64,000 nucleotides of DNA from Gemmatimonadota bacterium (GTDB taxonomy: Bacteria; Gemmatimonadota; Gemmatimonadetes; Longimicrobiales; Gaopeijiaceae), in the NCBI GenBank assembly GCA_034521595.1, contig JAXHMG010000002.1, positions 1 through 64,000 of the forward strand. Reading direction: 5' to 3'. Positions 5,714 through 52,020 of this stretch are shown here, piece after piece. Below the pieces are notes generated by a model that worked only from the letters and a program-made list of their open reading frames with translations, was not told the origin of the DNA and ran no database searches. The position numbers and the translations under genes were made by a program. Within the stretch, counting starts at the first letter, position 1. Each line of letters begins with the position of its first letter.

Positions 5714-5802
5714 GGAACTGGAGGTTCTTGCGGTAAGCACCGCATGCGCCACACAGTGCTTCTCTAGCCGATAGTCGGCCACCCTCACCCGAAGGAGATC
5801 CC

Positions 5803-7200
5803 ATGACGACGCCCGCCGCTTCCGTCGACTTCGTTGACCACATCCGCGACCGGGTCCGGGGGCCGGTGGTCGGGCCCTCGGACGACGGATACGAGGAGGC
5901 GCGCAGCTCGTACAACGCGATGCACGACCGCAAGCCGCTGGCGGTGGCGCGGTGCGTCGACGATGCGGACGTCATGGCTGTCGTCGGGGTCGCCCGGGAG
6001 GCCGGCGTACCCCTGGCGGTGCGGGGCGGCAACCACAGCGTGCCGGGGTTCGGGACCTGTGACGACGGTATCGTGCTCGATCTCTCGGGCATTCGGTACG
6101 TGCGCGTGGACCCCAAGGCCCGAACCGCGCGTGTCGGCGGGGGTGCCCTACTCGGAGACCTCGACCACGCCTCGCACGCCTTCGGGCTCGCCACGCCCGC
6201 GGGCTTCATCTCCACGACCGGGGTGGGTGGGCTGACGCTCGGCGGCGGAATCGGGGCCTATCTGTCCCGCCGCTACGGGCTCACTTGCGACAACCTCCTC
6301 TCTGCAGACGTCGTCACGGCCGACGGGCAGCTCGTTCACGCAAGCGCGGACGAGAACGCCGATCTGTTCTGGGCGCTCCGGGGCGGCGGGGGCAACTTCG
6401 GTGTCGTGACCTCGCTCGAGCTCGCGCTCCATCCGGTGAAGGAGATCGTCGGCGGCCCGATCTTCTTCGAGCTCGAGGCCGCCGGGGACGTGCTGCGCTT
6501 CTACCGCGACTACATCCGCCGCGCGCCGCGTGAGCTCGGAGGGTTCTTCGCGTTCCAGATCGCGCCGCCGCTGCCGTTCATCCCGGAGGAGCGTCAGGGC
6601 GACACCCTCTGTCTCGTGGTCACCTCATGGGCGGGCTCGCCGGAAGACGCCGACGACGTCCTCGAGCCCATCCGCTCCGCCGGACCGGTCGTGGCCGAAC
6701 ACGTCGGTGCGATGCCGTACCCGGCCCTGCAGAGCGCCTTCGACGATCTCGTTCCGCCCGGCATCCGGCACTACTGGAAGTCCGACTTCGTGAGAGCGCT
6801 GACTGACGAGAGCATCGCCGTGCACCTCGAGCACGGACCCCGCGTGCCGAGCGTCACCTCCACGATGCACATCTACCCGACCGACGGAGCGGTTCAGGAC
6901 GTGGCCCCGGAGGATACCGCGTTCGGCCATCGCGACGCCGACTTCTCGGTCAACATCGCCGGCATGTGGCCCGACGCCGCGGACGACGCGCGACACATCG
7001 AATGGGTCCGCGACTACTACGCCGCGATCCACCCGCACTCGGGCTACGACGGCGGCTACACCAACTTCATGGCCGCAGAGGACCAGGAGCGGGTTCGCGC
7101 CAACTACGGAGACGCGTACCCGCGGCTCGAGCGCATCAAGAAGGAGTGGGACCCCGACAACCTCTTCCGGCTGAACCAGAACATCGCGCCGGGGGGGTGA
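5803..7200 (+). CDS. FAD-binding oxidoreductase (BBE/VAO family)
   Basis: VRGGNHS, GGLTLGGG, WALRGGGGNFGVVT, KKEWDPDNLFRLNQNI. Confidence 0.92.
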   Translation: MTTPAASVDFVDHIRDRVRGPVVGPSDDGYEEARSSYNAMHDRKPLAVARCVDDADVMAVVGVAREAGVPLAVRGGNHSVPGFGTCDDGIVLDLSGIRYVRVDPKARTARVGGGALLGDLDHASHAFGLATPAGFISTTGVGGLTLGGGIGAYLSRRYGLTCDNLLSADVVTADGQLVHASADENADLFWALRGGGGNFGVVTSLELALHPVKEIVGGPIFFELEAAGDVLRFYRDYIRRAPRELGGFFAFQIAPPLPFIPEERQGDTLCLVVTSWAGSPEDADDVLEPIRSAGPVVAEHVGAMPYPALQSAFDDLVPPGIRHYWKSDFVRALTDESIAVHLEHGPRVPSVTSTMHIYPTDGAVQDVAPEDTAFGHRDADFSVNIAGMWPDAADDARHIEWVRDYYAAIHPHSGYDGGYTNFMAAEDQERVRANYGDAYPRLERIKKEWDPDNLFRLNQNIAPGG

Positions 7201-7556: not shown

Positions 7557-7601
7557 AGGGCGCGGCTTCCGAGCCTCGACCGGAACCCGCGCGCTTCTCC
7601 G

Positions 7602-8990
7602 GTGGTTTCTTGTTCCATACGCACGTCCCCTACGACCGGGAGCCAATACGTGGACCGCCCCTCGGACCGTTCCACCCCCTCTTCTGATCTCGACCCCTCC
7701 ACCACCCCATCGCCGAAGGGTGCCGGCACTCTTCTGGACCGGTACCGAAACGTCCGTCAGCGGAGCCGCTACCTCACCCGCAGCCTCGCGCCCGAGGACC
7801 ACGTGGTGCAGTCCATGACGGACGTGAGCCCCACCAAGTGGCATCTGGCCCACACGTCCTGGTTCTTCGAGACGTTCCTGCTCGAGCCCCACCAGGAGGG
7901 GTACACCCTCCACGACCCCGACTACCCGTACCTGTTCAACTCGTACTACGTGCAGGCCGGCGAGCGGCACTGCCGGGATCAGCGAGGCTATGTGTCCCGG
8001 CCCACCGTAAAGGAGGTCTGGACGTACCGCGAAGCGGTCGACGAAGCCATGGAGCGCTTGCTGGAAGGGGAGCTCACGCCGGAGGTGCGGGATCTGGTCG
8101 AGCTGGGCCTCAACCACGAGCAGCAGCACCAGGAGCTCATGCTGACCGACATCAAGCACGTCTTCAGCGTGAACCCGCTGCGACCGGCGTATCTCGAGCT
8201 CGACCCGGCCGCGTCCGACGCGGGAGCGCCGTCCGCGAGCGAAGCGCGGCCCCTCGCGTGGACGACGTTCCCCGAAGGCCTCCGGGAAGTGGGGTGGCAC
8301 GGCGACGGCTTCTGCTACGACAACGAGACTCCGAGGCATCGCCGCTTCCTCGAGCCGTTCGCGCTGGGCGACCGGCTCGTCACGAACGCCGAATACCTGG
8401 AGTTCATGGAGGACGGGGGCTACGAGCGCCCGGAGCTCTGGATGTCCGAAGGCTGGGCCGCGGTCGAGGAACGGGGCTGGAGCGCGCCCTTCTACTGGGA
8501 GTGGCGGGACGGCGCGTGGTGGGCGTTCACCCTCCGGGGCATGGTCCCCCTCGCCCCCGACGAGCCCGTCTGCCACGTGAACTGGTACGAGGCCGACGCC
8601 TACGCGCGCTGGGCCGGTGCACGCCTGCCGAGGGAGGACGAATGGGAGGTCGCGGCCCGGCAGAGCCCGGTCGACGGCAACTTCGTCCACTCCGGCCGGT
8701 TCCACCCGGGGCCGGCTCCGGCTAGGAGCACGGACGGGACGCCGCGACCCACCCAGATGTTCGGCGACGTCTGGGAATGGACCGGGAGCGCCTACAGGCC
8801 GTATCCCGGCTACCGGCCCCCGACGGGCGCGGTGGGCGAGTACAACGGGAAGTTCATGGTGAACCAGTTCGTGCTCCGGGGCGGATCGTGCGCCACGTCC
8901 CACAGCCACATCCGCTACAGCTACCGCAACTTCTTCCCTCCCGACGCCTCGTGGCAGTTCACGGGCATCCGGCTGGCGAGGGACCTGTGA
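7602..8990 (+). CDS. egtB: Ergothioneine biosynthesis sulfoxide synthase EgtB (start uncertain)
   Basis: SPTKWHLAHTSWFFE, NHEQQHQE iron motif, FGE-like GDVWEWT, GEYNGKFM, RGGSCAT, RNFF. Confidence 0.9.
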   Translation: MVSCSIRTSPTTGSQYVDRPSDRSTPSSDLDPSTTPSPKGAGTLLDRYRNVRQRSRYLTRSLAPEDHVVQSMTDVSPTKWHLAHTSWFFETFLLEPHQEGYTLHDPDYPYLFNSYYVQAGERHCRDQRGYVSRPTVKEVWTYREAVDEAMERLLEGELTPEVRDLVELGLNHEQQHQELMLTDIKHVFSVNPLRPAYLELDPAASDAGAPSASEARPLAWTTFPEGLREVGWHGDGFCYDNETPRHRRFLEPFALGDRLVTNAEYLEFMEDGGYERPELWMSEGWAAVEERGWSAPFYWEWRDGAWWAFTLRGMVPLAPDEPVCHVNWYEADAYARWAGARLPREDEWEVAARQSPVDGNFVHSGRFHPGPAPARSTDGTPRPTQMFGDVWEWTGSAYRPYPGYRPPTGAVGEYNGKFMVNQFVLRGGSCATSHSHIRYSYRNFFPPDASWQFTGIRLARDL

Positions 8991-19176: not shown

Positions 19177-19330
19177 GCGGCGTACCGGTGTGGCGTGGGA
19201 ATGAGGCCCGAATGATAACCCCGCGAGGACGGACCCGGGGCGATGCACCCTTGCCGCGGTCCGCCCCGGAGCTTCCTATCCCATCCACGGGCGAGCCGCG
19301 CCCATCCCCATCCCGCAACAGAGGACGACG

Positions 19331-21931
19331 ATGATCAGAGCCGCCCTGCTCACGGTCCTGCTCTCGGCCCCGGTCGCCGCCGCCGCGCAGGCACCCACCG
19401 GATTCATGCCGGACGGGATCGACTACGACCCCGGCATCGTCACGCCGGCGGAAGCGTTCGGGCACGAGCTCGGCGAGCGGCCGACACGCTACGGTCAACT
19501 CGTATCGTATTTCGAGCACATCGCGGGCAGCTCGGACCGGGTCGCGATCGACACGCTCGGCCACTCGGTGGAAGGCCGGCCCATCGTGCGGCTCACGGTG
19601 ACCGATCCGAGCAACCACGCGCGGCTCGACGAGATCCGGGCGCGACATCTCGCGGCGACCACGCCGGACGCGAGCGGCACGGACGCCGACCTGCCCGTGG
19701 TCGTGTGGCTCGGCTTCGGGGTGCACGGTGCGGAGGCCGCGGGTCTCGAGGCTTCCGCGCCGCTCATCCATCATCTGGCGGCCGGCCGGGGCGAGGAGAT
19801 CGAGCGCGTGCTGAGCAATAGCGTCCTGCTCGTCGTCGCCGCGCTCAACCCGGACGGGCACGCCCGTCGCATCGATCATTCGCTGAGCTTCACCTCCCGG
19901 ACGGTCGTCCGGAACGGAGATCACGCCGGCCACGATCTGTGGACCCGCCAGCGCGCGAACCACTACGGCTTCGACCTGAACCGGCAGTGGCTGCTCCTCG
20001 CCCAGCAGGAGGCGCGGGTATGGGTGCCGGCATGGCACGAGTGGAAGCCGCACTTCTCGACCGACTTCCACGAGATGGGCACGACCTCGGTGCGGCCGTC
20101 CACCTATTTCTTCTCTCCGGGCGACCCCGTCCGGACGAACCGCCTGACCCCGGAACCGGTCCGCCCCCTCCTCGACCGGATCTCGGAGTACCACGAGGCC
20201 GCCCTGGACGACCGGGGAACGCTCTACTTCACGGACGAGGTCTACAACAGCTTCTACCCGGGATCGGGCTCGAGCTACCCCAACCTGAACGGGTCATTGG
20301 GCTCGCTGTTCGAGGTCGGGACCGCCCATCTGATCGAGCTCGACACGCCGCTCGGCCTCTGGTCGCTGGCCGAGAACATCGACGTGCACTTCCGGAGCAC
20401 GCTCACGAGCATCGCCGCCGCCGTCGACCTGAAGGACGAGCTCCGGAGCTACCGCGGGTCGTTCCGCGAGATCGTGCTCGAACAGGCCCGGCAGGACGAC
20501 CGGGGCGGCTTCGTGTTCGCGTCACCGGACAAGGCCCGGCTCGCCCGCTTCGTGGAGCTCCTCGAGACCCACGAGATCGAGGTGCGCGGCCTCGCGCGCG
20601 ACCTCACGTTGGACGGAGTCGAGTACCGGGCCGGGGACGCGCTCGTCGTGCCGCTCGAGCAGGAAGCCTACCTGGTGGTGCGCACCCTCTTCGACCGCGT
20701 CACCGACTTCGAGGCGCCGAGCTTCAGCGACGCGACCGCCTGGACGCTCCCGCTCACCTTCGGGCTCGACCACGCCGTCGTGCCGCAGGGCCAGATGAGC
20801 CCGGAGCTGCTGGCCGCGCGACCCGATCCCGTCCGGCCGGCTCCGCCCACGCCGGACCGCGCTTCGTACGGCTACGCCTTCTCGTGGACCGATCACTACG
20901 CGCCGCGAGCCCTCTTCCGGGTCCTGGACGCGGGCCTGATCGCGCAGGCCGCCATGGTACCGGTGACGATCGAGACCACCCGGGGCGCGGTCGAGCTCGA
21001 ACGGGGCAGCGTGTTCGTGCCGCTGGGCAGGCAGGAATCCTCCGCCGAGGACATCCATGCCCTCATGACCCGGCTGGCCGCCGAAGACGGCATCGAGGTC
21101 CACGCGGTCGCGTCCGGGAACACCCTCGACGAGGGCGCCAACTTCGGGAACGCCGGCGCGTTCGGCACGCTTCGCCGGCCGGAGGTGCTGCTGCTGTTCG
21201 AGGGCGGCGTCCAGCGCTTCGACATGGGTCACGTCTGGCACCTGCTCGACGCCCAGATGGGCATGCCGGTGGTGCTGAAGCAGAAGGACCGAATCGGTGA
21301 GATCGATTGGAGCGCCTACACGCACATCATCCTGCCCGGGGGACGCGACGTCGGCCTGAGCGAAGCGGCGACGGTCCGCCTCGACCAGTGGATCCGCGAG
21401 GAGGGCGGCACGTTCATCGCGCTCCGGCAGGGCGCGGAGTGGGCGCAGGAAGCGCTCCTCGGCCGCGCCCCGATCACCGAGCGAACGATCGCGCTCGAGC
21501 CGGGCGAGCGCTTCGACTACGAGGAACTGCGTCTCCGCCAGTCCGAGGACGTCGTCTCCGGGGCGATCTTCTCCAGCGACCTCGACGTCAGCCACCCCCT
21601 CGGCTTCGGCTTCCATCGTCGCACGCTTCCCAGCCATCGCGACACCTCGATCCGGCTGGTCACCCCGGAGAATCCGGTGGCGACGGTGGCGCGCTATCAC
21701 GACGAGCCGCTGCTGGCGGGCTATGCTTCGGAGCGCCGCCAACGGGAGATCGGCGGCTCGCCGATGCTCGTCGCCGAACGCCTGGGCGCCGGCAGCGTGG
21801 TGCTGATGACCGACAACCCCAACTTCCGCGGCGTTTACCTGGGCACGAACAAGCTGCTCATGAACGGACTGTTCTTTTCGGCCCTGTTCAACGCCCCCTC
21901 GTCACCCGGCGGCGCCAGGTTCCGGCCGTGA
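19331..21931 (+). CDS. M14 family zinc carboxypeptidase
   Basis: Signal peptide; HGAE, NPDG, DLNRQW, DFHEM zinc-site motifs. Confidence 0.88.
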   Translation: MIRAALLTVLLSAPVAAAAQAPTGFMPDGIDYDPGIVTPAEAFGHELGERPTRYGQLVSYFEHIAGSSDRVAIDTLGHSVEGRPIVRLTVTDPSNHARLDEIRARHLAATTPDASGTDADLPVVVWLGFGVHGAEAAGLEASAPLIHHLAAGRGEEIERVLSNSVLLVVAALNPDGHARRIDHSLSFTSRTVVRNGDHAGHDLWTRQRANHYGFDLNRQWLLLAQQEARVWVPAWHEWKPHFSTDFHEMGTTSVRPSTYFFSPGDPVRTNRLTPEPVRPLLDRISEYHEAALDDRGTLYFTDEVYNSFYPGSGSSYPNLNGSLGSLFEVGTAHLIELDTPLGLWSLAENIDVHFRSTLTSIAAAVDLKDELRSYRGSFREIVLEQARQDDRGGFVFASPDKARLARFVELLETHEIEVRGLARDLTLDGVEYRAGDALVVPLEQEAYLVVRTLFDRVTDFEAPSFSDATAWTLPLTFGLDHAVVPQGQMSPELLAARPDPVRPAPPTPDRASYGYAFSWTDHYAPRALFRVLDAGLIAQAAMVPVTIETTRGAVELERGSVFVPLGRQESSAEDIHALMTRLAAEDGIEVHAVASGNTLDEGANFGNAGAFGTLRRPEVLLLFEGGVQRFDMGHVWHLLDAQMGMPVVLKQKDRIGEIDWSAYTHIILPGGRDVGLSEAATVRLDQWIREEGGTFIALRQGAEWAQEALLGRAPITERTIALEPGERFDYEELRLRQSEDVVSGAIFSSDLDVSHPLGFGFHRRTLPSHRDTSIRLVTPENPVATVARYHDEPLLAGYASERRQREIGGSPMLVAERLGAGSVVLMTDNPNFRGVYLGTNKLLMNGLFFSALFNAPSSPGGARFRP

Positions 21932-21988
21932 AGCGCGCCCGCGAACGCACGGAAGACGCCGAACGCACGCACAGAAAAGGACACGACC

Positions 21989-23992
21989 ATGCGCAAGACG
22001 ACGAACGGAGCCGAGCTCCGCGGGAAGGCATCCCTCCTCGGCCTGGCTGTCCTGAGCCCGGCCGTTCTGGGCCTCTCCGCGTGCGTCGACGCCGAGGAGG
22101 ACTTCACCCGGTACGAGGCGGACGTGTTCTTCGAGACCGTGAGCTACGGCCTCGCCGGTGAGGGCGGCCACGCGTTCTCTCCGGACGGCTCGCGACTGCT
22201 CATCAACTCCGACGAGACCGGCGTCTTCAACGCCTACGCGCTGGACATCGCGACCCGGCAGGCCGAGCCGCTCAGCGACTCCGAGTCGAACGCGATCTTC
22301 GCCGTCTCCTGGTTCCCCGACGACGACCGGGTGCTCCTCACCGGCGACGTGGGCGGCAACGAGCACAACAGCGTCTTCGTGCGTGATCCCGACGGCACGC
22401 TCCACGACCTGCTTCCTCCGGGCGACTACGAGGTCGCCGGCCAGCAGTCCGGACTCCGCTTCGAAGCCTGGCAGGAGGACGGAGAGGCCTTCTTCCTGAC
22501 CTCCACGGAGCGCGACCCTCAGCTCGCCGACCTGTACCGCTACGACGCCGAGACCTACGAGCGGGAGAGGGTCTTCCGGAACACCCGCGACCGCCCCTTC
22601 CCCACCCGCGGCTTCCACGTGAGCCCGGACGGACGCTGGCTCTCGTTGGATTTCCACCACACCCGCTACGACTTCGACATCTACCTCGTGGACCTGCACA
22701 GCGAGGAACGGCAGCCGGAGCTGATTCTGTCCCACGACGAGGAGGTCGTGTACCGGGGCATGGGCTTCACGCCCGACAGCCGCAGGCTGATCTACGGGAC
22801 CGACGAGCACGGCGAGTTCATGGATGCGTGGACCTACGACCTCGAGACCGGCGAGACCGCGCCCCTCGTGGTCGCCGACTGGGACATCACCCAGACCCGC
22901 ACCAACCTGGACTACGGCATCACGTACTCGCCGGACGGCCGGTACCGCGTGGACATCCACAACGTGGACGCCCGCAACGAGGTGAGCGTCACCGACACCC
23001 GGAGCGAGGAGGAGCTGGACCTCTCGTTTCTGCCCGACGGCATGGTCAGCAGCCCACGCTTCGAGCCCGGGACCGGGCGGCTCGCCGTCGAGCTCGAGCG
23101 GGACACCCGGCCCACCGACGTCTTCCTGCTGGACCTCGAAGCGCGCTCGGCCGAGCGGCTGACCGAAGCGCTCAACCCGGCCGTCGCTGAAGCGCACCTC
23201 GTGGAGAGTGAGGTCGTGCGGTTCGAGAGCTACGACGGCCTGGAGATCCCCGGACTCCTCTACCGGCCGCACGAGGCGAGCGCCGAGACCCCGGCTCCGG
23301 CGATGGTCTGGGTGCACGGCGGCCCCGGTGCTCAGAGCCGGCAGGGATACAGCCCCGTCATCCAGTTCCTGGTCAATCAGGGCTACGCGATCTACGCCAT
23401 CAACAACCGGGGCTCGAAGGGATACGGCAGGACGTTCCGCGAGATGGACCGGCGCAAGCACGGCGAAGCCGACCTGGGCGACGTCGTCGCCTCGCGGGGC
23501 TACCTGGAGTCCATCGACTGGATCGACGACGACCGGATCGGCGTGATGGGTGCCTCGTTCGGCGGATACCTCACCCTCGCCGCCATGACCTTCGAGCCCG
23601 AGGTCTTCGATGTCGGGATCAGCATCGTCGGGTACTCGGACGTCATCGGAAACATCACGGCGGGCGGCTGGCGGCTGCCGCGGCTACCGGCGGCCTACGA
23701 CGAGATGGGCCATCCGGAGGAGGACGCCGAGCGGCTCCGCAGGGTGTCGCCGCTCTACGCCGCCGACCGCATCGCACGCCCGCTCTTCGTCGCCGCCGGA
23801 GCGAACGACGTGCGCGTGCCGATCGATCAGAACGACCGCCTGGTGGAGGCGGCCCGTGAGGCCGGGGTCGACGTGGAGTATCTGGTCTTCGAGGACGAGG
23901 GCCACGGCTTCCGCAAGCGCGAGAACCGGATCACCGCGGCCGAGGCCTACGTCGACTTCCTCGACCGGTTCTTGAGGGGGGAGGGGATGTAA
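21989..23992 (+). CDS. S9 family peptidase (lipoprotein)
   Basis: Beta-propeller N-terminus; VHGGP, GASFGG, GANDVRV, EGHG triad motifs. Confidence 0.92.
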   Translation: MRKTTNGAELRGKASLLGLAVLSPAVLGLSACVDAEEDFTRYEADVFFETVSYGLAGEGGHAFSPDGSRLLINSDETGVFNAYALDIATRQAEPLSDSESNAIFAVSWFPDDDRVLLTGDVGGNEHNSVFVRDPDGTLHDLLPPGDYEVAGQQSGLRFEAWQEDGEAFFLTSTERDPQLADLYRYDAETYERERVFRNTRDRPFPTRGFHVSPDGRWLSLDFHHTRYDFDIYLVDLHSEERQPELILSHDEEVVYRGMGFTPDSRRLIYGTDEHGEFMDAWTYDLETGETAPLVVADWDITQTRTNLDYGITYSPDGRYRVDIHNVDARNEVSVTDTRSEEELDLSFLPDGMVSSPRFEPGTGRLAVELERDTRPTDVFLLDLEARSAERLTEALNPAVAEAHLVESEVVRFESYDGLEIPGLLYRPHEASAETPAPAMVWVHGGPGAQSRQGYSPVIQFLVNQGYAIYAINNRGSKGYGRTFREMDRRKHGEADLGDVVASRGYLESIDWIDDDRIGVMGASFGGYLTLAAMTFEPEVFDVGISIVGYSDVIGNITAGGWRLPRLPAAYDEMGHPEEDAERLRRVSPLYAADRIARPLFVAAGANDVRVPIDQNDRLVEAAREAGVDVEYLVFEDEGHGFRKRENRITAAEAYVDFLDRFLRGEGM

Positions 23993-35933: not shown

Positions 35934-38900
35934 TCAGCGCCCACCCCCCACGCCCGGCACTCCTTCGGGCTCGTCACTCCACCACCAGAGCGGCGCGAGC
36001 TCGCGCGTGCGCGGGTGGATCTCGGTAAGGGTGTCGCCTTCGTACAGGCGGCCGTTCTTCATCACGTAGCGGACGGTGTTCGTGTGGCGGATGTCGTCGA
36101 GCGGGTTCTCGTCGAGCACGACCAGGTCGGCGAGCTTGCCGGGCTCGATCGAGCCGAGATCCCGGTCGAGGCCGATGGCCTCAGCACCCTGGATGGTCGC
36201 CACCCGAAGCGCGTCGTGCTCATCGAGCCCCCCGGATTGCATGGCCCACAGCTCCCAGTGGTAGCCGAGCCCCTGGAGCTGGCCGTGGCTTCCGACACCG
36301 GCCTTTCCGCCCGCCTCCACCAGGTCCGCCACGAAGCGGGCGTGATCCCGGAAGACATGCTCCTCTTCCATGAACCAGCCGGCCCCCCGGCGCCGCGTGG
36401 ACCCGTCGAGCACGCCGTACGGCGTGAAGCGCGCGAGCTTCGGATCGTCGTGCGGCTGCTCTCGTGAGTAGAAGTAGTTCTCGGCCCACGGACCGCCGTA
36501 CGCGACGAGCAGGGTCGGCGTGTAGACACGCCCGCTCTCCGCGAAGAGGCGCACGTAGTCCTCGTAGACCGGGTAGACCGGAATCGAGTGCTCGAGCCCG
36601 GGATAGCCATCGATGGTTTCCGTGAGGTTCTGCTTGAGGTTCAGCGATCCCTCGGTCGTCGGCATGAGCTCGTGCTCGCGAGCCGCCTGGATGATCCACT
36701 GGCGCTGCTCCCTCGTGCCGGCCACGTACATCTTCAACGTCTTGGTATCGAAGTAGTCGGCGTAGCGCCGGATGAGCGTGCGGGCCTCGTCGAGGGAATC
36801 GACGTTGGACTGGAAGAAGATGCCCGGGCCGGTCGAGTAGATGCGCGGCCCCACGAGCTCGCCCGCTCGCACCCGGTCTTCGTAGGTGAGGACGTCCGTG
36901 CTTCCGGTCTGGGGATCGCGGGTCGTCGTGACCCCGTAGGCGAGGTTCACGAAATAGGCCCACACGTCCGCGCGGTGCACGTTGAAGGACGGACGCAGGT
37001 GGGCGTGCGTGTCGACGAACCCGGGCACGATCGTGCGGCCGGAGACGTCCACGACCTCCGCGCCCGAAGGCACCTCCACGTCGCCCCGGGGACCGACGTC
37101 GACGATGCGGTTGTCCCGAACCACGAGATCGGCGTCCTCCACCACCTCGTCGTCCCTCATCGTGATCACACGCGCGCCCCGAAGCACGACCGTGCCCCGC
37201 GGAATGTCCCGCGCGACCGCTACCTCTACCCGGTGCTCCACGGCCCGGTATCCGGTCTCGCCGTCATCGGACTCCTCGTCCTCAGCGTCGGCGTCTTCAT
37301 CCTCATCGGCTTCGGCCACCTCGACGCTGTCCTCGTAGGCCCGCGCCGCGTCGAGGTCGTAGACGAAGTGCGCGTTGCCGAGCGACCAGTGCACCGTCCG
37401 CCCGTCCGCGCCCCAGGCCGGGAACTCGCCTCCGAAATCGGTCAGCTTGCGGGCCGGAAACGCCGCGTCGTCGGGGTCGCCGACCTGAATGGTCGGGGCG
37501 GTGCCTACGTCCGGAACCGTCAGCGTATAGACGTGGTTGAGGATGTGCGCCAGCGCCCGGTCGCCGGTCGGTGCCATGACGACGGACGAGGGGCTCTGCG
37601 CGTCGTCCTGGCCCGTCACGTCCTCCCCTCGCACCCGCACGTGGGTCTGCTCGTCCGTGCCGTCCCACCGGACCGAGACGAGCCGGTCCGGCGAGCGGAA
37701 GAGGTGAATGCGCTCCCCGTCCTCCGTGAAGTGCGGTCGGCTCCGGTCCCCCAAGGGCATGACGACGGTGGCCTGCCCGCCCGCGGCCGGAAGCCAGACG
37801 AGCTCGTCGGCCGAGCTCCCGGCGCCCTGGCTCGGGTGTTCCAGGAACGCCCGAGCGTCTCCCCGCAACACCACGATCCGCTCCCCGTCGGGGGACCAGG
37901 CGGGCTGGCTGTAGAACGCGGGCAGCTCCGAGAGCCGCTCGGGCGTGCCCCCATCGGCGGACACGCGGTACACGTGACCGGCCTCACCTTCCCACGTCAC
38001 GAACGCGAGCGAGCCACCATCCGGAGACCACGCGGGCATGTGCTGTTGGGCGTCCGGCATCTCCGCGACCCTCCGCGGGCTCGTTCCGTCGACGTTCGCC
38101 ACGTACAGGCGGTCGAGCGCGGTGAACGCGAGGCGGGTACCGTCGGGAGACGGGACCGCATCACGGATCTGGCGGGCCGTGAAGGTCTCCGTGTCCTCGA
38201 TCGGATAGTCGAAATCGACTTCGGGACCGATCTCGAGGTCGAAGCGGACCCGGAAAGGGATCTCCTCCGCGGACCCGCCGTCCACCGGAAGCCGCCAGAT
38301 CTTGCCGCCGTAGCTCGTTACCAGGTGCTCCGAGTCCGGCGTGAACGACATGCCCGGCAGCACGTCGAGCGTGGCCCGCGACTCCTGGTCGTCGTGCTGG
38401 ACGGGGTGCGCGAGCCAGCGCTCGTCGCCCGACTCCAGGTCGCGGATCCGGAGCCCGGTCTCCGCGTCGTGGCGTGTCCCGTAGACCAGCCACCGTCCGT
38501 CGGGCGAGAGGGTGGGACGAAACGCGCTTCCGACCCGCTCGACCCGCGTGTGCACCTCGCCGGTCTCCCGGTCGTACGCGCGGACACGGTACTGCGGAAG
38601 ATCGGCGTTGTACTCCCAATCTCCGGAGCCGGTGCGCTGGGCGAACCACACCCACCGTCCCTCCGGACTGAACGCCGCGCCCACGGCCTTGCGCAGATCC
38701 TCCTCTTCCAGCAGATCCACGCCCGACCCGCCGTCGACGTGCCACAGCCTCAAATTCGGGTTTCCACCGTACCGGAACGTGCCGCTGCCGAACGTCGCGA
38801 CGACGTAGTTCCCGTCCGGCGACCAGTCCGGTGCCTCGGCCCGGTTCGCTTCTCCCCGCGAGACTTGCGTCGTGTCGGTCCGGTCGAGGCTGATGGTCCA

Positions 38901-39272
38901 GATATTCTGACCGCCGTCCCGGTCGGACGTGAAGGCCACTCGCTCGCCGTCCGGCGAGAAGCGCGGCTGTGCGTCGAAGGCCATGCCCGACGTGAGCTGC
39001 GTCGCCTCGCCACCCTCGATGGGAACGGTGAACAGGTCACCCAGATAATCGAATACGAGAGTGCGCCCGTCCGGACTGACATCGAGCGAGATCCAGGAAC
39101 CTTCGGTGAGGTCGATGGGCACCGTGCGCCCGGGCTCCAGCGGGAGGCTGCCGTGCGCGCCATCTCCCCCGGTCTCGTCCCCTTCCGGTTCCTGGCCGAC
39201 GGCCCCGCCGGCGAGACCCGCCGACACCAGCAATACGGATACCATCGCGAGCGCGTGCCTGCCCATCCTCAT
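35934..39272 (-). CDS. Amidohydrolase with PD40/TolB-like repeats
   Basis: Signal peptide; SPDG repeats; PGFVDTHAH, YGVTT, GSIEPGKLADLV; AGGAGG SD. Confidence 0.92.
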   Translation of the reverse strand: MRMGRHALAMVSVLLVSAGLAGGAVGQEPEGDETGGDGAHGSLPLEPGRTVPIDLTEGSWISLDVSPDGRTLVFDYLGDLFTVPIEGGEATQLTSGMAFDAQPRFSPDGERVAFTSDRDGGQNIWTISLDRTDTTQVSRGEANRAEAPDWSPDGNYVVATFGSGTFRYGGNPNLRLWHVDGGSGVDLLEEEDLRKAVGAAFSPEGRWVWFAQRTGSGDWEYNADLPQYRVRAYDRETGEVHTRVERVGSAFRPTLSPDGRWLVYGTRHDAETGLRIRDLESGDERWLAHPVQHDDQESRATLDVLPGMSFTPDSEHLVTSYGGKIWRLPVDGGSAEEIPFRVRFDLEIGPEVDFDYPIEDTETFTARQIRDAVPSPDGTRLAFTALDRLYVANVDGTSPRRVAEMPDAQQHMPAWSPDGGSLAFVTWEGEAGHVYRVSADGGTPERLSELPAFYSQPAWSPDGERIVVLRGDARAFLEHPSQGAGSSADELVWLPAAGGQATVVMPLGDRSRPHFTEDGERIHLFRSPDRLVSVRWDGTDEQTHVRVRGEDVTGQDDAQSPSSVVMAPTGDRALAHILNHVYTLTVPDVGTAPTIQVGDPDDAAFPARKLTDFGGEFPAWGADGRTVHWSLGNAHFVYDLDAARAYEDSVEVAEADEDEDADAEDEESDDGETGYRAVEHRVEVAVARDIPRGTVVLRGARVITMRDDEVVEDADLVVRDNRIVDVGPRGDVEVPSGAEVVDVSGRTIVPGFVDTHAHLRPSFNVHRADVWAYFVNLAYGVTTTRDPQTGSTDVLTYEDRVRAGELVGPRIYSTGPGIFFQSNVDSLDEARTLIRRYADYFDTKTLKMYVAGTREQRQWIIQAAREHELMPTTEGSLNLKQNLTETIDGYPGLEHSIPVYPVYEDYVRLFAESGRVYTPTLLVAYGGPWAENYFYSREQPHDDPKLARFTPYGVLDGSTRRRGAGWFMEEEHVFRDHARFVADLVEAGGKAGVGSHGQLQGLGYHWELWAMQSGGLDEHDALRVATIQGAEAIGLDRDLGSIEPGKLADLVVLDENPLDDIRHTNTVRYVMKNGRLYEGDTLTEIHPRTRELAPLWWWSDEPEGVPGVGGGR

Positions 39273-39407
39273 GACCCTCCTCCTGTTCACTCCTGGACCG
39301 TCCACACCATGTTCACGGGCGCGCTGCGACTCCCGGACCCGCGTCGAGAGCCGCGCACGGCCCGCCGGCCGCCACAATAGTGGACGGAGCACGTCCCTGC
39401 ACGTCGC

Positions 39408-46537: not shown

Positions 46538-47791
46538 ATGGCTCGTCCCTCCCGGCGCTTCCGCGGAGAGCCGCCCCTACTCGCCTACGGCGCGTCGTTC
46601 GCGCTCTTCTCGAGCTTCGGTCAGACCTTCCTCATCTCGCTCTTCGTTCCTTCCTTCGTGAGCACGTTCGATCTCAGTGACGGAGGGTTCGGCGGACTGT
46701 ATTCGGCGGCCACGCTGATCAGTGCCGCGCTCCTTCCCTGGGCGGGACGCCGATTGGACTACGTGCGGCTCAACCGCTTCAGCCTGGCGGTCGTCGCCCT
46801 GATGACGGCCTCGGCCCTCATGCTGGCTCTCGCCCCGAACGCTGCGGTGCTAGGGATCGCTCTCGTCGGGCTCCGGCTCGCGGGACAGGGGCTGTCCGGC
46901 CACACGACCCACACGGTCATGGCCCGGTACGCGGGGGCCCGACGGGGGTGGGCGCTGAGCGTCGCCGGCCTCGGCTTCCCCGCCGGCGAAGCCGTTCTAC
47001 CGTACCTGACCACCGTCGCCCTGCTCGGGCTCGGCTGGCGGGTCACCTGGCTGGTCTTCGCGGCGCTGGCCTTCGTCGTCTTCGCGCCGCTCCTCGTGGC
47101 CGTGCTCCACCGCGCGGAGATCGAGCTCGACCCGAAGAAGCTCGACGAGCACGCGGACGAGGGCCCGTCGCCCGGGAAGCGCGAGTTCGACGCCCGTGCA
47201 GGCGATTGGACCCGGGCGGCCGTCCTCCGGGACCGCCGGTTCTTCCACGCGCTGCCCTCGGCGCTCCTCCCGAGCTTCTGGCTCACCGGCATCTTCCTCT
47301 ACCAGACCCGAATCGCGGAGATGAAGGGCTGGCCGATCACGCTCATGGCCACCGCCTTCGTGGGCTTCGCCGCGAGCCGAATCGCGTTCTCGTTGTTGGC
47401 CGGACGCGTGGTGGACAGGCTCACCGCGCGCCGCGTCTACCCTTTTCTGCTCCTCCCGATGGCCGCCGCCCTCGCGCTCCCCCTGGCGGTCGACGCCCGG
47501 TGGGGCGCCTTCGGGCTGATGATCGGGCTCGGGGTGACGATGGGGATGGGCACGCCGGTCCGGTCGTCGCTCTGGGCCGAGCTCTACGGCGTCCGGCACC
47601 TGGGCGCCATCAAGGCGATGATCACCTCGTTCAGCGTGCTCGCCGCCGCCGGCAGCCCCGTGCTCATCGGGCTCGCCCTGGACGCCGACGTCGCTCTCGA
47701 CCACATCCTGTGGACGGGCGTCGCCACCACGCTCGCGGGATCCGCAGTGGCTTGGGGGCTCATGGTGGATTCGAACGACCCCGCGATATGA
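46538..47791 (+). CDS. MFS transporter
   Basis: SSFGQTF.IS.F, GRRLD, RLAGQG, WAELYG.RHLGAI; about 12 TM helices. Confidence 0.9.
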   Translation: MARPSRRFRGEPPLLAYGASFALFSSFGQTFLISLFVPSFVSTFDLSDGGFGGLYSAATLISAALLPWAGRRLDYVRLNRFSLAVVALMTASALMLALAPNAAVLGIALVGLRLAGQGLSGHTTHTVMARYAGARRGWALSVAGLGFPAGEAVLPYLTTVALLGLGWRVTWLVFAALAFVVFAPLLVAVLHRAEIELDPKKLDEHADEGPSPGKREFDARAGDWTRAAVLRDRRFFHALPSALLPSFWLTGIFLYQTRIAEMKGWPITLMATAFVGFAASRIAFSLLAGRVVDRLTARRVYPFLLLPMAAALALPLAVDARWGAFGLMIGLGVTMGMGTPVRSSLWAELYGVRHLGAIKAMITSFSVLAAAGSPVLIGLALDADVALDHILWTGVATTLAGSAVAWGLMVDSNDPAI

Positions 47792-47890
47792 CGACGACTC
47801 GACCTCCACGCGTCGTGTTCCGGCATGGAGGGGCCCGGCGAGACGTGTGAGCCTCCGATGGATCCGAACACCTTCCCCAAGGAGGCCATC

Positions 47891-48085
47891 ATGTTCGCCA
47901 AGTTTTCCCCCGCAGCGCTGCTCGCAGTTGCCACGCTGGTGTTTCTGATCGCACCGGATCGACCGGTGGCGGCATCCGAGTGCGGAGAGCTCCACGGCAT
48001 GCTCTGCGAGTCGGTGGAGGAGTGCACCGGCTTCTGGTTCTGGAAGTCGTGCACCACGTCCAACAGCTATTGGGGGGGGTTGTAG
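47891..48085 (+). CDS. Secreted four-Cys peptide A (64 aa)
   Basis: AAGGAGG SD; hydrophobic signal ending VAA; mature SECGELHGMLCESVEECTGFWFWKSCTTSNSYWGGL; paralog downstream. Confidence 0.85.
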   Translation: MFAKFSPAALLAVATLVFLIAPDRPVAASECGELHGMLCESVEECTGFWFWKSCTTSNSYWGGL

Positions 48086-48115
48086 ACGGACCGCCCCTAC
48101 ATCGACCGGAGCGCT

Positions 48116-48150
48116 CGAGGGGCCGGGGCCGGCGTGGCTCCGGCCCCTCG
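48116..48150 (+). terminator. 15-bp stem-loop between the peptide genes (no U-tract)
   Basis: CGAGGGGCCGGGGCC-GGCGT-GGCTCCGGCCCCTCG, one G-U pair. Confidence 0.6.
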
Positions 48151-48283
48151 TCACGTGCTCGCCACGCGCCGCCCGAACCCGTCCCATTCCGACATGGGTC
48201 AGCCCTCGGCAAGGCACGAGGCTACATGACCGGCTGGTGGGCCGGACGCCGTCACGGGACATCCCCAACTCACGGAGGTAGCC

Positions 48284-48478
48284 ATGTTCAAGATGCTCTC
48301 ACTCCCCACTCTGCTCCTGGCTGGAGCACTCGCTGTCGTATCCGCTCCGGGCACCGAGGTCGCCGCTTCCGAGTGCGGCGCCGACGGCCGCGAAAAATGC
48401 TGGGAGAACGAATCGTGCATTTACCTCCTCTTCTACAGTCAGTGCACGACGAAGACGAAGTACTGGGCAGGACTCTGA
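48284..48478 (+). CDS. Secreted four-Cys peptide B (64 aa)
   Basis: GGAGGT SD; signal ending VAA; mature SECGADGREKCWENESCIYLLFYSQCTTKTKYWAGL; gap-free alignment with peptide A. Confidence 0.85.
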   Translation: MFKMLSLPTLLLAGALAVVSAPGTEVAASECGADGREKCWENESCIYLLFYSQCTTKTKYWAGL

Positions 48479-48613
48479 CCCCGTACTGATCCGACGGCGG
48501 TGAGCACCACGCTCACCCGTCATGATGTTCGCGCCCGCGACGGTCCGGCCCACTACGTCGCTACCACGGCTCACGGACACGTCCGGGCCTCGGCCCGGGC
48601 ACGGAGGAAACAG

Positions 48614-49132
48614 ATGCATCCCTTTTCATACTCGACGATCACCCTGGCAATGGCCGGCATCCTCTTGGGTGTGGCTGGGTGGCGCTGGCACGAAGCCGCG
48701 GTCGTGAGACCCGACCACTTCCCCGGCGTCGACCCTCCTGCCGCCATCCTCGTCGTTCAGGAACGCGATTGTCCCGACCGACGCGCGGCCATGGCGGTGT
48801 GGCTGGACGACCTGCACGCGTCCGACGCCGGCGCGTCCCTCCCCGTCTACCTCGGGGTGCTGGGCGACGACCCCGGCCTCCTCGACCCACGAACGGACGA
48901 GCTACCCCGGCTGCCCAGCGCCGAAGCGTCGACCGCGGCGCGCGCCCTGCTTCGCGCGGGACTCTCGGGCACGCCGGCGCTCATCGTCCTCGACTCGGAA
49001 GGCCACGTCCTCCTGGCGGACACCTTCGCAACCACCGGACCCGGCGCCAGGTTGGCGCTCGCAGCCGATCTACTACCGGCGGTTCGTCCTTTCACGGGCC
49101 CCGCCGACGTCCTTCAGCCCGATGGAGGGTGA
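48614..49132 (+). CDS. Membrane-anchored thioredoxin-fold-like protein (single Cys)
   Basis: GGAGG SD; N-terminal TM; ILVVQERDCPDR and GLSGTPALIVLDSEG (cis-Pro loop pattern). Confidence 0.65.
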   Translation: MHPFSYSTITLAMAGILLGVAGWRWHEAAVVRPDHFPGVDPPAAILVVQERDCPDRRAAMAVWLDDLHASDAGASLPVYLGVLGDDPGLLDPRTDELPRLPSAEASTAARALLRAGLSGTPALIVLDSEGHVLLADTFATTGPGARLALAADLLPAVRPFTGPADVLQPDGG

Positions 49133-49135
49133 CCC

Positions 49136-50590
49136 ATGGAACAGCTCCCGTTGCTGCTGAACATCGTCGGCGTGGGCCTCTGGCTCGGTTTCACGGTGGA
49201 TTTCCTGCGGCGCCCTCCACTCCAACCCCGGTCGTGGGGTCGGAACGTGAGGCGCGGTGCGTGGGTGGGGCTCGCCATGCTCTTTTTGGCTGCCGGGGGG
49301 TGGGGTCCCGAGATGTCGCATTCGACGACGAGCGACTTTTCCCGCGACCCCGACGTGGGAACCCCGGTTGAGACGACGAGCAGCTTGCTCCGCACCCCGT
49401 TCGCGATCTACGAAAGCACCGCGGTGATGGACAGAGAGGGACGCACGATCCGTCAGGATCGCATGGTCACCAGGCAGCTCCCGTTGGCTCTGCTGATCTT
49501 CCTCGCGGGTGCGTTCTGGCTCCGGCGTCGCCGCGAGCTCTCGGAGAAACGGAGTCCCACGAGCAGAGGGGCGACGGATGCTCTGGCCTTGGTGGGAATC
49601 CTGTCCGCCACGCTCACCGGCGCCGGATGCGGCGACCCCGCGCCCTGGGACGGGGACCGTCCGGAACGCAAGATCGTGGACGTGACGTGGGATACGCTGG
49701 CTCACGTACGTTCCGGAGTGAACGACTCGCTGCTGTTCTCGGCGAGCGGCGTGGCCGCGGACGAGGAGGGGTTCTGGGTGGGCGACCTGTACGGCGACCG
49801 CGTGGCTCGCTTCGACTGGGAAGGACGGCTGCTGCGGTACGTAGGCGACTCCGGCCGGGGACCGGGCGAGATTGGACGCGTCCACGAGATCGACGTGGAC
49901 GGCGAGGGCGTGCTCTGGATCCTGGACCCCGAGAACACCCGGATCACGGGCTTCGATCAGAGCGGCGCCCTCGTCGACGAAGTGCCGTTTCGGGGTTTGG
50001 ATGCCTCCCCCGGATCGTTCGCGGTGAGTCGCGATGGGAGAACATTCATGTCCATGCTCCCTTCCGACCGGCTCGAGCCGATCCTTATCCACCGTGACGG
50101 GCGCATCGAACGGGGCACGCAGATCCCCGTGCCCGATGCGAACGGCGCATTCGGCCTGGCCCTGCAAGGTCGGGTCGCCCGCCACGACCACGGCTGGCTG
50201 TTCGCGTTCACCTCCGGAGACGGCATCTTCCGCATGCGCGGCCTCGAGACCGTCGGGCCGCGGCTCCGGTACCCGGAGGCCATCCCGTTCCCGGGCATCA
50301 CCCGATCCGTGCAGCGGGACGGACGTCGCACCTCGACGACGACCCGGCTCGCGGAGCGCAATCCGGCCGCGGCCGCCATCTCCACCCGAGGGTCGGAGCT
50401 GCTCGTCGTCTTTCACGGGGAAAGCCCGAACGCCGGACGCCTCCTCGACCGCTACGACCTCGAGCGGGGCCGTTACCTCGACACGGTCCTCCTACCCGTG
50501 TCGGGATACGTCGCTGCATGGGACGACCGGCTCGTCGTGGCCCGGACCAACCCACGACCCGAGCTCCTCGTTCTCCGACAGGTCGAGTGA
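49136..50590 (+). CDS. Membrane domain fused to 6-bladed (NHL/DUF5128-like) beta-propeller
   Basis: Three hydrophobic helices, internal lipobox-like LTGAGC (Cys165), GRGPGE, LWILDPENTRITGFD, LDRYDLERGRYLDT. Confidence 0.8.
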   Translation: MEQLPLLLNIVGVGLWLGFTVDFLRRPPLQPRSWGRNVRRGAWVGLAMLFLAAGGWGPEMSHSTTSDFSRDPDVGTPVETTSSLLRTPFAIYESTAVMDREGRTIRQDRMVTRQLPLALLIFLAGAFWLRRRRELSEKRSPTSRGATDALALVGILSATLTGAGCGDPAPWDGDRPERKIVDVTWDTLAHVRSGVNDSLLFSASGVAADEEGFWVGDLYGDRVARFDWEGRLLRYVGDSGRGPGEIGRVHEIDVDGEGVLWILDPENTRITGFDQSGALVDEVPFRGLDASPGSFAVSRDGRTFMSMLPSDRLEPILIHRDGRIERGTQIPVPDANGAFGLALQGRVARHDHGWLFAFTSGDGIFRMRGLETVGPRLRYPEAIPFPGITRSVQRDGRRTSTTTRLAERNPAAAAISTRGSELLVVFHGESPNAGRLLDRYDLERGRYLDTVLLPVSGYVAAWDDRLVVARTNPRPELLVLRQVE

Positions 50591-50607
50591 CGTGCTAGCA
50601 GCCCGCG

Positions 50608-52020
50608 CTACGGCACGAGCTCGCGGATGATTCCGTCGTGCTTGTTCAACAGGAAAAGACGGTCGTCCGGACCCGTGCCGAAACGGAGGTCGGTCCGCTC
50701 GGGTGCCGGAGCGCCGACGGCCGCTGCGCGATCCTGCATGACTTCCAGGAAGGTCTTGGCCGCACCGCCGTCTTCGAGGAGCACCCGTCGGATCGCCGCC
50801 TGCCCCCCCTCCGGCAGCACGTCCGCCGAGATATGGAAGATCTCTCCGCTCACCATCTCTCCGAACAGGATACGATCCTGCAGCTGCGGGATCCTGTCAT
50901 TACGTGGCACGACCACGCCCGTGATGGCGACCCTGGACTGAAACAGGGGGTCGGCCTGATCGAACTCCGCGATGGGAAAGGTGACGTCCGGGTCCGACCG
51001 CGGAGACATGCGGTCGACACCCGACCGGCTCACGAAGCGGAAGCTTCCCTCCCAGGTGTTCCATCCCAGGTCGGCGCCGGCGGTCACACGGCTGAGCTCC
51101 TCGACGGCGTTCTGTCCGATGTCGGCGACGAACAGGCTCCCGTTGGCCGGGTCCCACCCGAAGCGCTGAGGGTTGCGGAAGCCCGACGCGTAGACTTCGG
51201 GCAGCGCCCCGTCTCCTTCGCTCACGAACGGATTGTGCTCGGGCACGCCGTACTCGCCCGTGGAGCCGTCGGTCCCCTGCGGATCGATCCGCAGGATCTT
51301 CCCGAACGGGGAGCCGAGGTCCTGGGCGAGATCGAGCGGGTCGCCCCCGCTCCCCCCGTCCGCCACCCCGACGTACAACATCCCGAAGTCGGGGTCATCC
51401 GGCTCGGCCAACGGGTTGAAGGCGATGTGTCCGGCGTTGTGGTTGCCGAAGGGTTGCTCCAAGCGGAGCAGCTCCCTGGGCTCCTCCCCGTCATACGTGT
51501 CCGCGTCGGGAGAGGTCGCGGTCCATTCGAGGAGCACCGTATGATGACTCGCCTCCCCACTCCCGGCCGTGAAGTGGGGCTCGGGAGACATGTCGTCGGT
51601 GTCCAGCCAAGTGTAGAGCTTCCCGTATCCGGGTGTCCCGGGCTCGTTGAACTGCGGATGCAACGCGAAGCTCTGAAAGCCACGCTCTCGCCCCGACGCG
51701 TCGACGGGCACGCCCCAATCCGCGTGGTCCACGTCGAGGTACCGTGCCACGTCGCCGTCGTACCCGACGGTGTACAGCGGGCCCCACATATCGTTGACGA
51801 ACATGCGCTCCGTACCCGGCTCGTCCACGAGAAGCATCGGCCGCGCGGGTGCTCCGTCGATTTCCGGGAGGGAAGCGAACTCTTCGTACGCCACGACCGC
51901 GACGTCTTCCGTGGCTTCGATGGGCTCGGTGAACGGGTCGTCGGTCGCGCTGGTGCAACCGAGACTCACGACGGTCAGGGCGACAGTGACCTGTCGGGCC
52001 CATCGGACACGGTGACTCAT
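50608..52020 (-). CDS. PQQ-dependent sugar dehydrogenase-like (GSDH) lipoprotein
   Basis: Lipobox SLGC; QPFGNHNAG, DGGSGGDP, GKILRIDP, GFRNPQRF, DIGQN..EE. Confidence 0.88.
   Translation of the reverse strand: MSHRVRWARQVTVALTVVSLGCTSATDDPFTEPIEATEDVAVVAYEEFASLPEIDGAPARPMLLVDEPGTERMFVNDMWGPLYTVGYDGDVARYLDVDHADWGVPVDASGRERGFQSFALHPQFNEPGTPGYGKLYTWLDTDDMSPEPHFTAGSGEASHHTVLLEWTATSPDADTYDGEEPRELLRLEQPFGNHNAGHIAFNPLAEPDDPDFGMLYVGVADGGSGGDPLDLAQDLGSPFGKILRIDPQGTDGSTGEYGVPEHNPFVSEGDGALPEVYASGFRNPQRFGWDPANGSLFVADIGQNAVEELSRVTAGADLGWNTWEGSFRFVSRSGVDRMSPRSDPDVTFPIAEFDQADPLFQSRVAITGVVVPRNDRIPQLQDRILFGEMVSGEIFHISADVLPEGGQAAIRRVLLEDGGAAKTFLEVMQDRAAAVGAPAPERTDLRFGTGPDDRLFLLNKHDGIIRELVP

Follow-up and report, generated by a model that had tools for sequence, protein, structure and literature searches.

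The 64,000-nucleotide stretch analysed here (hereafter the window; contig JAXHMG010000002.1 of assembly GCA_034521595.1, GC content 69.5%), from a bacterium of the phylum Gemmatimonadota, holds two small genes, A and B, each encoding a peptide precursor with four cysteines. Directly downstream lie the genes of a thioredoxin (Trx)-like protein and of a 484-residue protein ending in an NHL-repeat β-propeller, two partners that were absent from the initial annotation of this DNA. The explanation favoured here, with a probability of roughly 0.5 for the whole, is that A and B, as tandem paralogues, represent a family of exported mini-proteins that has not been described so far, and that peptide, Trx-like protein and propeller constitute an envelope module, in which an exported, disulfide-locked peptide would be folded by the Trx-like protein and bound by the propeller, rather than the source of a diffusible lytic toxin. 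The features of this cassette are the following.

47879..47885, + strand: ribosome-binding site of A (AAGGAGG), 5 nt before the ATG, as read in the sequence.
47891..48085, + strand: precursor of peptide A, 64 residues; putative signal peptide in codons 1-28 (47891-47974), putative mature 36-residue four-Cys part with a Trp-rich tip (47975-48082).
48109..48160, + strand: GC-rich hairpin after A, with a 15-bp inner stem and no T tract.
48274..48278, + strand: ribosome-binding site of B (GGAGG), as read in the sequence.
48284..48478, + strand: precursor of peptide B, 64 residues, of the family-typical type; putative signal peptide (48284-48367), putative mature 36-residue four-Cys part (48368-48475).
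48614..49132, + strand: predicted membrane-anchored thioredoxin-fold protein, 172 residues, with one invariant Cys53 (D-C-P-D-R) and invariant T120-P121.
49136..49630, + strand: N-terminal membrane module of the 484-residue protein, with three hydrophobic helices and a fourth one ending in a lipobox-like Cys165.
49631..50590, + strand: NHL-repeat β-propeller domain (residues 166-484), assigned by a profile search against PDB sequences.

The initial annotation had described A and B as two open reading frames (ORFs) of 64 residues that align without gaps and share a fixed cysteine pattern, a description that is confirmed here: both lie on the + strand at the coordinates it gave, and the pattern matches letter for letter. 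Compared end to end by BLASTP, the two sequences align without gaps, with 26 of 64 residues identical (41%; E 9e-14 in this single comparison). Both hold Cys31, Cys39, Cys45 and Cys54, giving a spacing of 7-5-8, and share E43, F50, CTT at positions 54-56 and YW-x-GL at positions 60-64. Their loops between the third and fourth cysteines read TGFWFWKS in A and IYLLFYSQ in B. A GGAGG-type ribosome-binding site is located 5 nt upstream of the ATG in both genes. An alternative upstream ATG of A would give forms of 75-86 residues, and the relatives of the peptide begin at the MF(K/A)K position.

The pair can be placed beyond chance because a family profile built from 14 relatives, searched against 1.84 billion representative proteins, finds 111 proteins or clusters at E<=1e-3, 36 of them at E<=1e-10. 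Two of the 111 (P0008 and P0107) turned out to be repeat junk and were discarded, leaving 109 real matches. The four-Cys core is present in 103 of these and the exact 7-5-8 spacing in 77. An alignment of 59 sequences shows no exchange at Cys31, Cys39 or Cys45, and at least 90% of them also have Cys54, so that the cysteine scaffold on which the initial annotation made its proposal depend is indeed conserved among homologues.

That A and B might be nothing else than random open frames had to be considered, given that DNA of such GC content yields many long spurious ORFs, whose off-frame translations even matched each other. This possibility is refuted by the 109 homologues with their conserved cysteine pattern; the canonical ribosome-binding sites of both ORFs, the purifying selection described below and the conserved synteny with the partner genes also speak against it, and its probability is practically nil. 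As a separate observation, an off-frame translation of the Trx-like gene (48616-49129) matched an off-frame homologue in another locus (L029) with 39% identity over 151 residues, which is a warning for the use of tblastn in high-GC genomes.

The family signature, derived from 79 gap-free sequences, comprises a Gly-rich loop between Cys1 and Cys2, L/V/I before Cys2, and E at position 43. Between Cys3 and Cys4 there are four hydrophobic or aromatic residues (48-51) followed by K/R (52), a K/R residue standing beside the tip in 61 of the 79 loops, and Cys4 opens the motif C-T-T-x-Y-x-Y-(Y/W). Of these sequences, 71 have Y60 and 74 have Y, W or F at position 61. Beyond the core, 60 of the 103 core-bearing relatives hold a tail of more than 14 residues after Cys4, often rich in Asp/Glu or Gly. 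Five of the 103 (P0037, P0044, P0054, P0060 and P0080) end in C-x-x-C-H, the attachment pattern of haem c, which lies in the tail behind the core. In four members (P0024, P0029, P0038 and P0105), a conserved tail, W-G-R-D-Y-L-G-W-E-P-R-G-C, contains a second pair of cysteines. A role for glycosylation was also considered and dropped, as an N-x-S/T sequon between Cys2 and Cys3 occurs in merely 18 of the 79 sequences.

A and B match no Pfam family at E<=0.1, and the family as a whole has neither a Pfam domain nor a name. A word-index search with peptide A alone returned only A itself, while the same search with the 59-sequence profile returned 13 proteins, all of them hypothetical or unnamed. 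The best feature score for peptide B in the ESM Atlas was 0.79, with a TM-score below 0.5 and no lead, and PADLOC gave no match for the four cassette proteins. Regarding its distribution, the family is found in all six other genomes of the genus (E 2e-15 to 7e-22; 7 of 7 with that of the window) and in four genomes of other genera of the same family (E 1e-8 to 4e-16). Counting the window's genome, in which A and B are the only copies, 11 of 61 genomes hold a match at E<=1e-5. Across the phylum, the peptide is present in 16 of 401 sampled genomes, from three families (9 of 69 in f1, 5 of 30 in f7 and 1 of 166 in f4).

The N-terminus of each peptide looks like a Sec signal peptide and would fit signal peptidase I. 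Its 28 residues begin with a basic stretch and continue into a hydrophobic core; a conserved motif precedes the putative mature part, with A28 invariant in the 14 relatives and V/I/L at position -3. Of the 103 core-bearing relatives, 75 have A, S or G at position -1 and 87 have L, A, V, I, S or T at position -3. The export foreseen by the initial annotation is supported at the level of sequence, relatives keeping all three regions (n, h and c) of a putative Sec-type signal together with its V/I/L-x-A motif.

The same annotation had proposed a β-hairpin with a membrane- or receptor-binding tip. AlphaFold2, run with the 59-sequence alignment, also models the signal helix followed by a hairpin, with strands 38-46 and 53-60 and a hydrophobic or aromatic tip at residues 47-52, at modest confidence (mean predicted local distance difference test, pLDDT, of 69; predicted TM-score of 0.33). 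Since Cys45 faces Cys54 in the register of the model, Cys31 and Cys39 are left as the second pair, and the putative disulfides would be Cys45-Cys54 and Cys31-Cys39. The net charge of the peptides is about -4 for A and -1 for B. This negative charge, like the acidic tails that many relatives have, fits poorly with a cationic membrane-lytic role.

The first partner, the Trx-like protein, was called with the same 172 residues in the database. Its AlphaFold2 model (mean pLDDT 79.5) consists of a helix (residues 7-31) followed by a β-α-β core, and the best Foldseek matches of this model are all Trx-fold oxidoreductases: tryparedoxin, DsbE, CcmG, ResA and DsbF (E 4e-4 to 8e-3, TM-scores 0.35-0.51). 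At the sequence level, its best match other than propellers is DsbE (3gl3, E 0.02). No Pfam, NCBIfam or PADLOC entry matches the protein, and a word-index search with its profile found nine proteins, none of them named. In an alignment of 11 sequences, Q49, D52, C53, T120, P121 and G130 are invariant, and the second Cys of the C-x-x-C motif is absent from all 11, the motif being D-C-P-x-R. Judging from this alignment, Cys53 would occupy the position of the nucleophilic Cys, the only one kept.

The second partner is encoded at 49136-50590, its start codon lying 3 nt after the stop of the Trx-like gene. A profile of its C-terminal domain, searched against the PDB, matched known NHL domains at E 1.3e-39 to 1e-9, a match from which six blades can be predicted. 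The Thin NHL domain (1.3e-39) and TRIM71 (1e-29) gave the best values quoted here, followed by the sensor of PknD (1e-6) and PAL (3e-4). Weaker matches include Pfam DUF5128 (E 1.2e-3 and 18.5 bits, under the cut-off of 22.9 bits), NCBIfam ScyF (below its cut-off) and the exported Bacteroides protein 4raa (E 7e-4). A PAL-like lyase was considered and dropped: the PAL match is weak, and the alignment of the propeller contains no invariant His, which argues against a PAL-like metal site. The layout of the 484-residue protein suggests that a membrane protein of three helices has been fused to the precursor of a lipoprotein. The lipobox-like Cys165 is invariant in 10 aligned sequences although it is internal to the protein; the topology of the module is likewise a prediction. 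In three loci (L062, L063 and L068), an ORF of its own downstream of the propeller encodes the membrane module, and the propeller is a bare lipoprotein lacking this module in seven (L038 and L069-L074).

The association of these genes with the peptide is conserved. A total of 28 loci were examined, comprising the window, a set of 12 (L029 to L040) and 15 further ones, and the propeller domain adjoins the peptide in 22 of them (the window, 10 of the 12 and 11 of the 15). The Trx-like gene is located between peptide and propeller in all ten of L029-L038. Seven of the 15 further loci hold a match to its hidden Markov model (HMM) at E<=1e-3, and in L071-L074 the same slot is occupied by very diverged Trx-like copies with weak HMM values (E 0.01-1); inspected by eye, the ORF of L071 holds an anchor, one D-C and one T-P. 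The cassette is syntenic in all seven genomes of the genus. By contrast, ten flanking genes sampled from nine other loci fall into nine different Pfam families, one gene lacking any, and include a Na/Ca exchanger, a TonB-receptor-like protein, a ketoacyl synthase, NFACT, AsmA, a K+ channel and an amidohydrolase. As the flanking genes differ among loci, only the cassette is conserved, which makes it a self-contained set. In the window, its neighbours are an MFS transporter, GSDH and MscS. The upstream MFS transporter was discarded as a cassette member, because it is syntenic in close relatives alone (L030 and L031).

Copy number varies among cassettes. Those linked to a propeller hold a single peptide in 14 of 22 cases and two or three in the remaining 8, the window included, and the order A-then-B is common to the window and one other genome (G004). 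In L069-L074, from genera g6 and g49 and from family f4, the genes form arrays such as propeller, peptide, peptide, propeller, and their third-position GC is 0.54-0.67 versus 0.73-0.89 in neighbouring genes. The lower GC and the arrays suggest recent gain or amplification in these loci.

A direct contact between propeller and peptide was addressed by complex prediction with the propeller domain (residues 166-484) and the mature peptide, both supplied as alignments, in three runs with three controls. The ipSAE values were 0.56, 0.56 and 0.72 (median 0.56), compared with 0.01, 0.00 and 0.00 for the controls, a result classed as "weak support". At least 89% of contacts are common to the runs, and the pLDDT of the partner is at least 71. 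In the calibration of this procedure, 58 of 80 solved complexes attained the mark, as did 2 of 110 mismatched pairs, with scores of 0.60 or less in only 7 of those 80 and in both of the mismatches that passed. With the conserved gene linkage serving as the prior, binding of the peptide by the propeller is considered likely but unproven.

From these data, the following mechanism can be proposed. The Sec pathway would export each precursor, and cleavage, presumably after the conserved V-A-A motif, would free a peptide of 36 residues. Two disulfides, paired as suggested above, would then lock it as the modelled β-hairpin with a hydrophobic or aromatic tip. The one-Cys Trx-like protein, anchored in the inner membrane and facing the periplasm, could be a thiol-disulfide isomerase dedicated to the peptide, or could hold it. 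The NHL propeller, predicted to be periplasmic and either membrane- or lipid-anchored, would bind the folded peptide, as the complex models and the conserved linkage suggest. Read in this way, the trio would be a self-contained envelope module: within the periplasm of the producer itself, the peptide would serve the propeller as a ligand or as a small subunit. A lytic role is further disfavoured by the absence of any exporter from the cassette, in addition to the net acidic charge and the acidic tails.

Several observations weigh against this proposal. The peptide model reaches a pLDDT of only 69, and a comparison with 48,161 chains returned GnsA as the sole match, at a Z of 2.5 that is not meaningful. 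By the calibration given above, a complex score of this size would be wrong more often than right unless the guess was already likely beforehand. A Trx fold with a single Cys is unable to oxidise or reduce on its own, so that the role assigned to the Trx-like protein is a guess. In addition, six of the 28 peptide loci have no propeller nearby: L039, L040 and L067 are lone peptides, L066 is at a contig edge, and in L064 and L065 (genomes G307 and G429, of one genus) the peptide is accompanied by the Trx-like gene and the membrane module but by no propeller. Finally, the faster rates of evolution of the cassette, its patchy distribution and the arrays of L069-L074 fit a toxin-immunity system just as well. 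Regarding L064 and L065, a gene of a metalloenzyme superfamily is found in the place of the propeller, and a third genome of this genus (L063) has the propeller.

Evolutionary rates were estimated as ratios of nonsynonymous to synonymous substitution (dN/dS) by pairwise Nei-Gojobori comparison of five genome pairs; for the peptide, the estimates rest on 36 mature codons, with dS near 1 in three of the pairs. The values were as follows.

Mature peptide: 0.045, 0.51, 0.26, 0.42 and 0.39.
Trx-like protein: 0.19-0.47.
Propeller: 0.20-0.46.
Flanking MscS: 0.14-0.18.

The cassette genes evolve about twice as fast as the flanking MscS, yet under purifying selection. The initial annotation had attributed the differences between the loops of A and B to diversifying selection, an idea not supported by the ratios, which are below 1 in all five pairs, nor by a tip that is hydrophobic or aromatic at positions 48-51, and K/R at 52, across the 79 sequences.

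These rates bear on a second explanation, according to which the peptides would be Sec-exported, disulfide-stabilised antagonistic molecules, matured by the Trx-like protein, while the propeller lipoprotein would bind them at the membrane surface and protect the producer. The small size and putative export of the four-Cys peptides, their hydrophobic or aromatic tip, mostly accompanied by K/R, the patchy occurrence (16 of 401 genomes), the multi-copy arrays of peptides and propellers, the faster evolution of the cassette and the strong hairpin after peptide A would be in keeping with such bacteriocins. There is also a precedent in the bacteroidetocin clusters, which combine a four-Cys peptide, a thiol oxidoreductase and a transmembrane protein (PMC6671954). 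However, no GG leader, ABC/C39 exporter or outer-membrane route was found in or near the cassette, nor any ABC or C39 protein among the ten flanking genes from nine other loci. The peptides are anionic, with Asp/Glu-rich tails in many relatives, and the dN/dS values remain below 1 throughout, down to 0.045 in one pair. Unlike typical strain-variable toxin loci, the cassette is syntenic in 7 of 7 genomes of the genus, and the literature matches listed contain no immunity protein of the propeller type. On balance, such an antagonistic function is possible, although on the unlikely side.

A related model, put forward by the initial annotation, is that A and B act together as a two-peptide unit targeting a membrane or receptor, with loops under diversifying selection. 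The two genes are adjacent and of different subtypes (Trp-rich versus family-typical tip), their order is repeated in G004, and several peptides per cassette are seen in 8 of 22 cases. On the other hand, the single peptide of the other 14 argues against an obligate pair and differs from the two-peptide (class IIb-like) bacteriocins, and neither the dN/dS values (below 1 in 5 of 5 pairs) nor the conserved chemistry of the tip agrees with diversification. Moreover, A is separated from B by the strong hairpin, so that equal dosage is not built in. The segment 48083-48165 folds with -46.4 kcal/mol (z -2.8), and none of 200 shuffled sequences was as stable, whereas the hairpin after peptide B is no better than shuffles (z -0.7). 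The hairpin after A was missing from the output of a consensus terminator scan; it is a possible terminator or attenuator and may set the ratio of the peptide A transcript to the downstream genes. The same scan of 47500-50800 gave four terminator-like sites, inside or 3' of the propeller gene and none after the peptides, and a promoter scan of this region found no sigma-70-like site. A joint action of A and B as a unit is, in view of these data, very improbable.

The cysteines, together with the conserved Glu, Tyr and Tyr/Trp, could instead bear a redox function or a cross-linked cofactor, installed or used by the partner proteins. In quinoprotein amine dehydrogenases, small Cys-rich subunits sit on propeller subunits. 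The haem-attachment-like C-x-x-C-H of 5 of the 103 relatives, the retention of Y60 (71 of 79) and of Y, W or F at position 61 (74 of 79), and the presence among the structural matches of the Trx-like protein of CcmG and ResA, thioredoxins of cytochrome c maturation, all point in this direction. So does SOQ1, a fusion of Trx-like and NHL domains reported to be a redox enzyme (bioRxiv 10.1101/2024.11.01.621559). Nevertheless, C-x-x-C-H is absent from A and B themselves, the propeller holds no invariant His, the Trx-like protein has one Cys only, and the cassette includes no radical SAM, oxidase or haem lyase gene. A cofactor-bearing peptide is, for these reasons, considered improbable.

Elsewhere in the window, an ORF with DinB_2 and FGE-sulfatase domains (7557-8990), an architecture that we take to be that of EgtB-type sulfoxide synthases, is found beside a BBE-type FAD oxidase (5737-7200). 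Large exported peptidase-type genes are located at 19205-23992 and 35934-39407 (M14 carboxypeptidase, S9 prolyl oligopeptidase, and PD40 repeats with an amidohydrolase), a run that fits a protein-degrading lifestyle.

Neither the peptide family, which comprises about 109 clusters at 50% identity, nor the two partner proteins carry a Pfam, NCBIfam or PADLOC name. No published description of the peptide, Trx-like and NHL-propeller trio was found, although supplementary gene tables may hold unnamed loci. With three or four genes, all of them extracytoplasmic and small enough for expression, the trio is a tractable system. It is suited to asking how a dedicated one-Cys thioredoxin folds disulfide-rich peptides, what bacterial NHL propellers bind, and whether the poorly studied Gemmatimonadota produce a new type of peptide toxin or of envelope ligand.

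Among known systems, the bacteroidetocins (class IIf) of Bacteroidales come close in gene content. They are four-Cys peptides of about 40 residues, encoded beside a thiol oxidoreductase of their own and a membrane protein with several passes, all of which were required for activity; they are made with a 15-residue GG leader and use an ABC exporter with a peptidase domain, and the word "propeller" does not occur in the paper (PMC6671954). The cassette of the window holds a four-Cys peptide beside a Trx-fold gene, a possible likeness to their clusters, and the product of the latter has one thiol only. Compared by description only, it differs in the Sec-type signal peptides, the NHL propeller, the one-Cys Trx fold and the lack of an exporter. 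The Trx-like protein has, like TlpA, DsbE, CcmG and ResA, a thioredoxin fold behind an N-terminal membrane anchor, but keeps only the first Cys of C-x-x-C and is matched by no Pfam or NCBIfam model.

In Bacteroidales, DUF5128 genes annotated as "6-bladed beta-propeller" associate with small proteins of the NVEALA type. The likeness lies in propeller lipoproteins standing beside small exported proteins, often in arrays. However, the propeller reaches 18.5 bits, below the DUF5128 cut-off of 22.9, and the peptides, which lack any Pfam match, have none to NVEALA either; among the literature matches listed, there was no paper with either term. Animal hairpin peptides of the tachyplesin/protegrin type carry a strong positive charge, and both of their disulfides form rungs across the hairpin. 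They have in common with the peptides described here a short hairpin stapled by disulfides, as modelled, whereas the window peptides are anionic, hold only one Cys on the second strand of the model and gave no structural match.

Finally, the pairing of a Trx fold with a six-bladed NHL propeller is already known as a fusion. In animal NHLRC2, the cleft between the Trx-like and NHL domains holds the active-site motif CC(I/V)NC and has been proposed as a ligand site, and the study found no conserved neighbour in seven bacterial genomes (PMC6107167). SOQ1, from the thylakoid lumen of plants, is described as a membrane-anchored, redox-active fusion of Trx-like and NHL domains (bioRxiv 10.1101/2024.11.01.621559). 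The trio might accordingly be read as a split bacterial counterpart of these proteins, where the peptide would dock in the cleft between Trx-like protein and propeller and be held or remodelled through a mixed disulfide. This would be a rather unlikely case; if true, the cassettes would provide a module that has no known substrate in animals with a small, defined ligand, and would represent a new class of periplasmic peptide-protein systems. Binding of the peptide by the propeller would, in itself, offer a model for the ligand of NHLRC2-type Trx-NHL proteins. No NHLRC2 chain appears in the best 60 of 72 PDB matches of the propeller, nor among the Foldseek matches listed for the Trx-like protein, and the resemblance is one of design, with no membership shown. 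What is shared is a thioredoxin-fold module paired with an NHL propeller in an extracytoplasmic or lumenal location, with a cis-Pro-like T-P that is invariant in the Trx-like family of the window. Unlike in NHLRC2 and SOQ1, however, the two modules are encoded here by separate genes (48614-49132 and 49136-50590) that are 3 nt apart, CC(I/V)NC is replaced by the single Cys of D-C-P-D-R, and, in a further difference from NHLRC2, a dedicated gene for a small peptide is attached to the pair.

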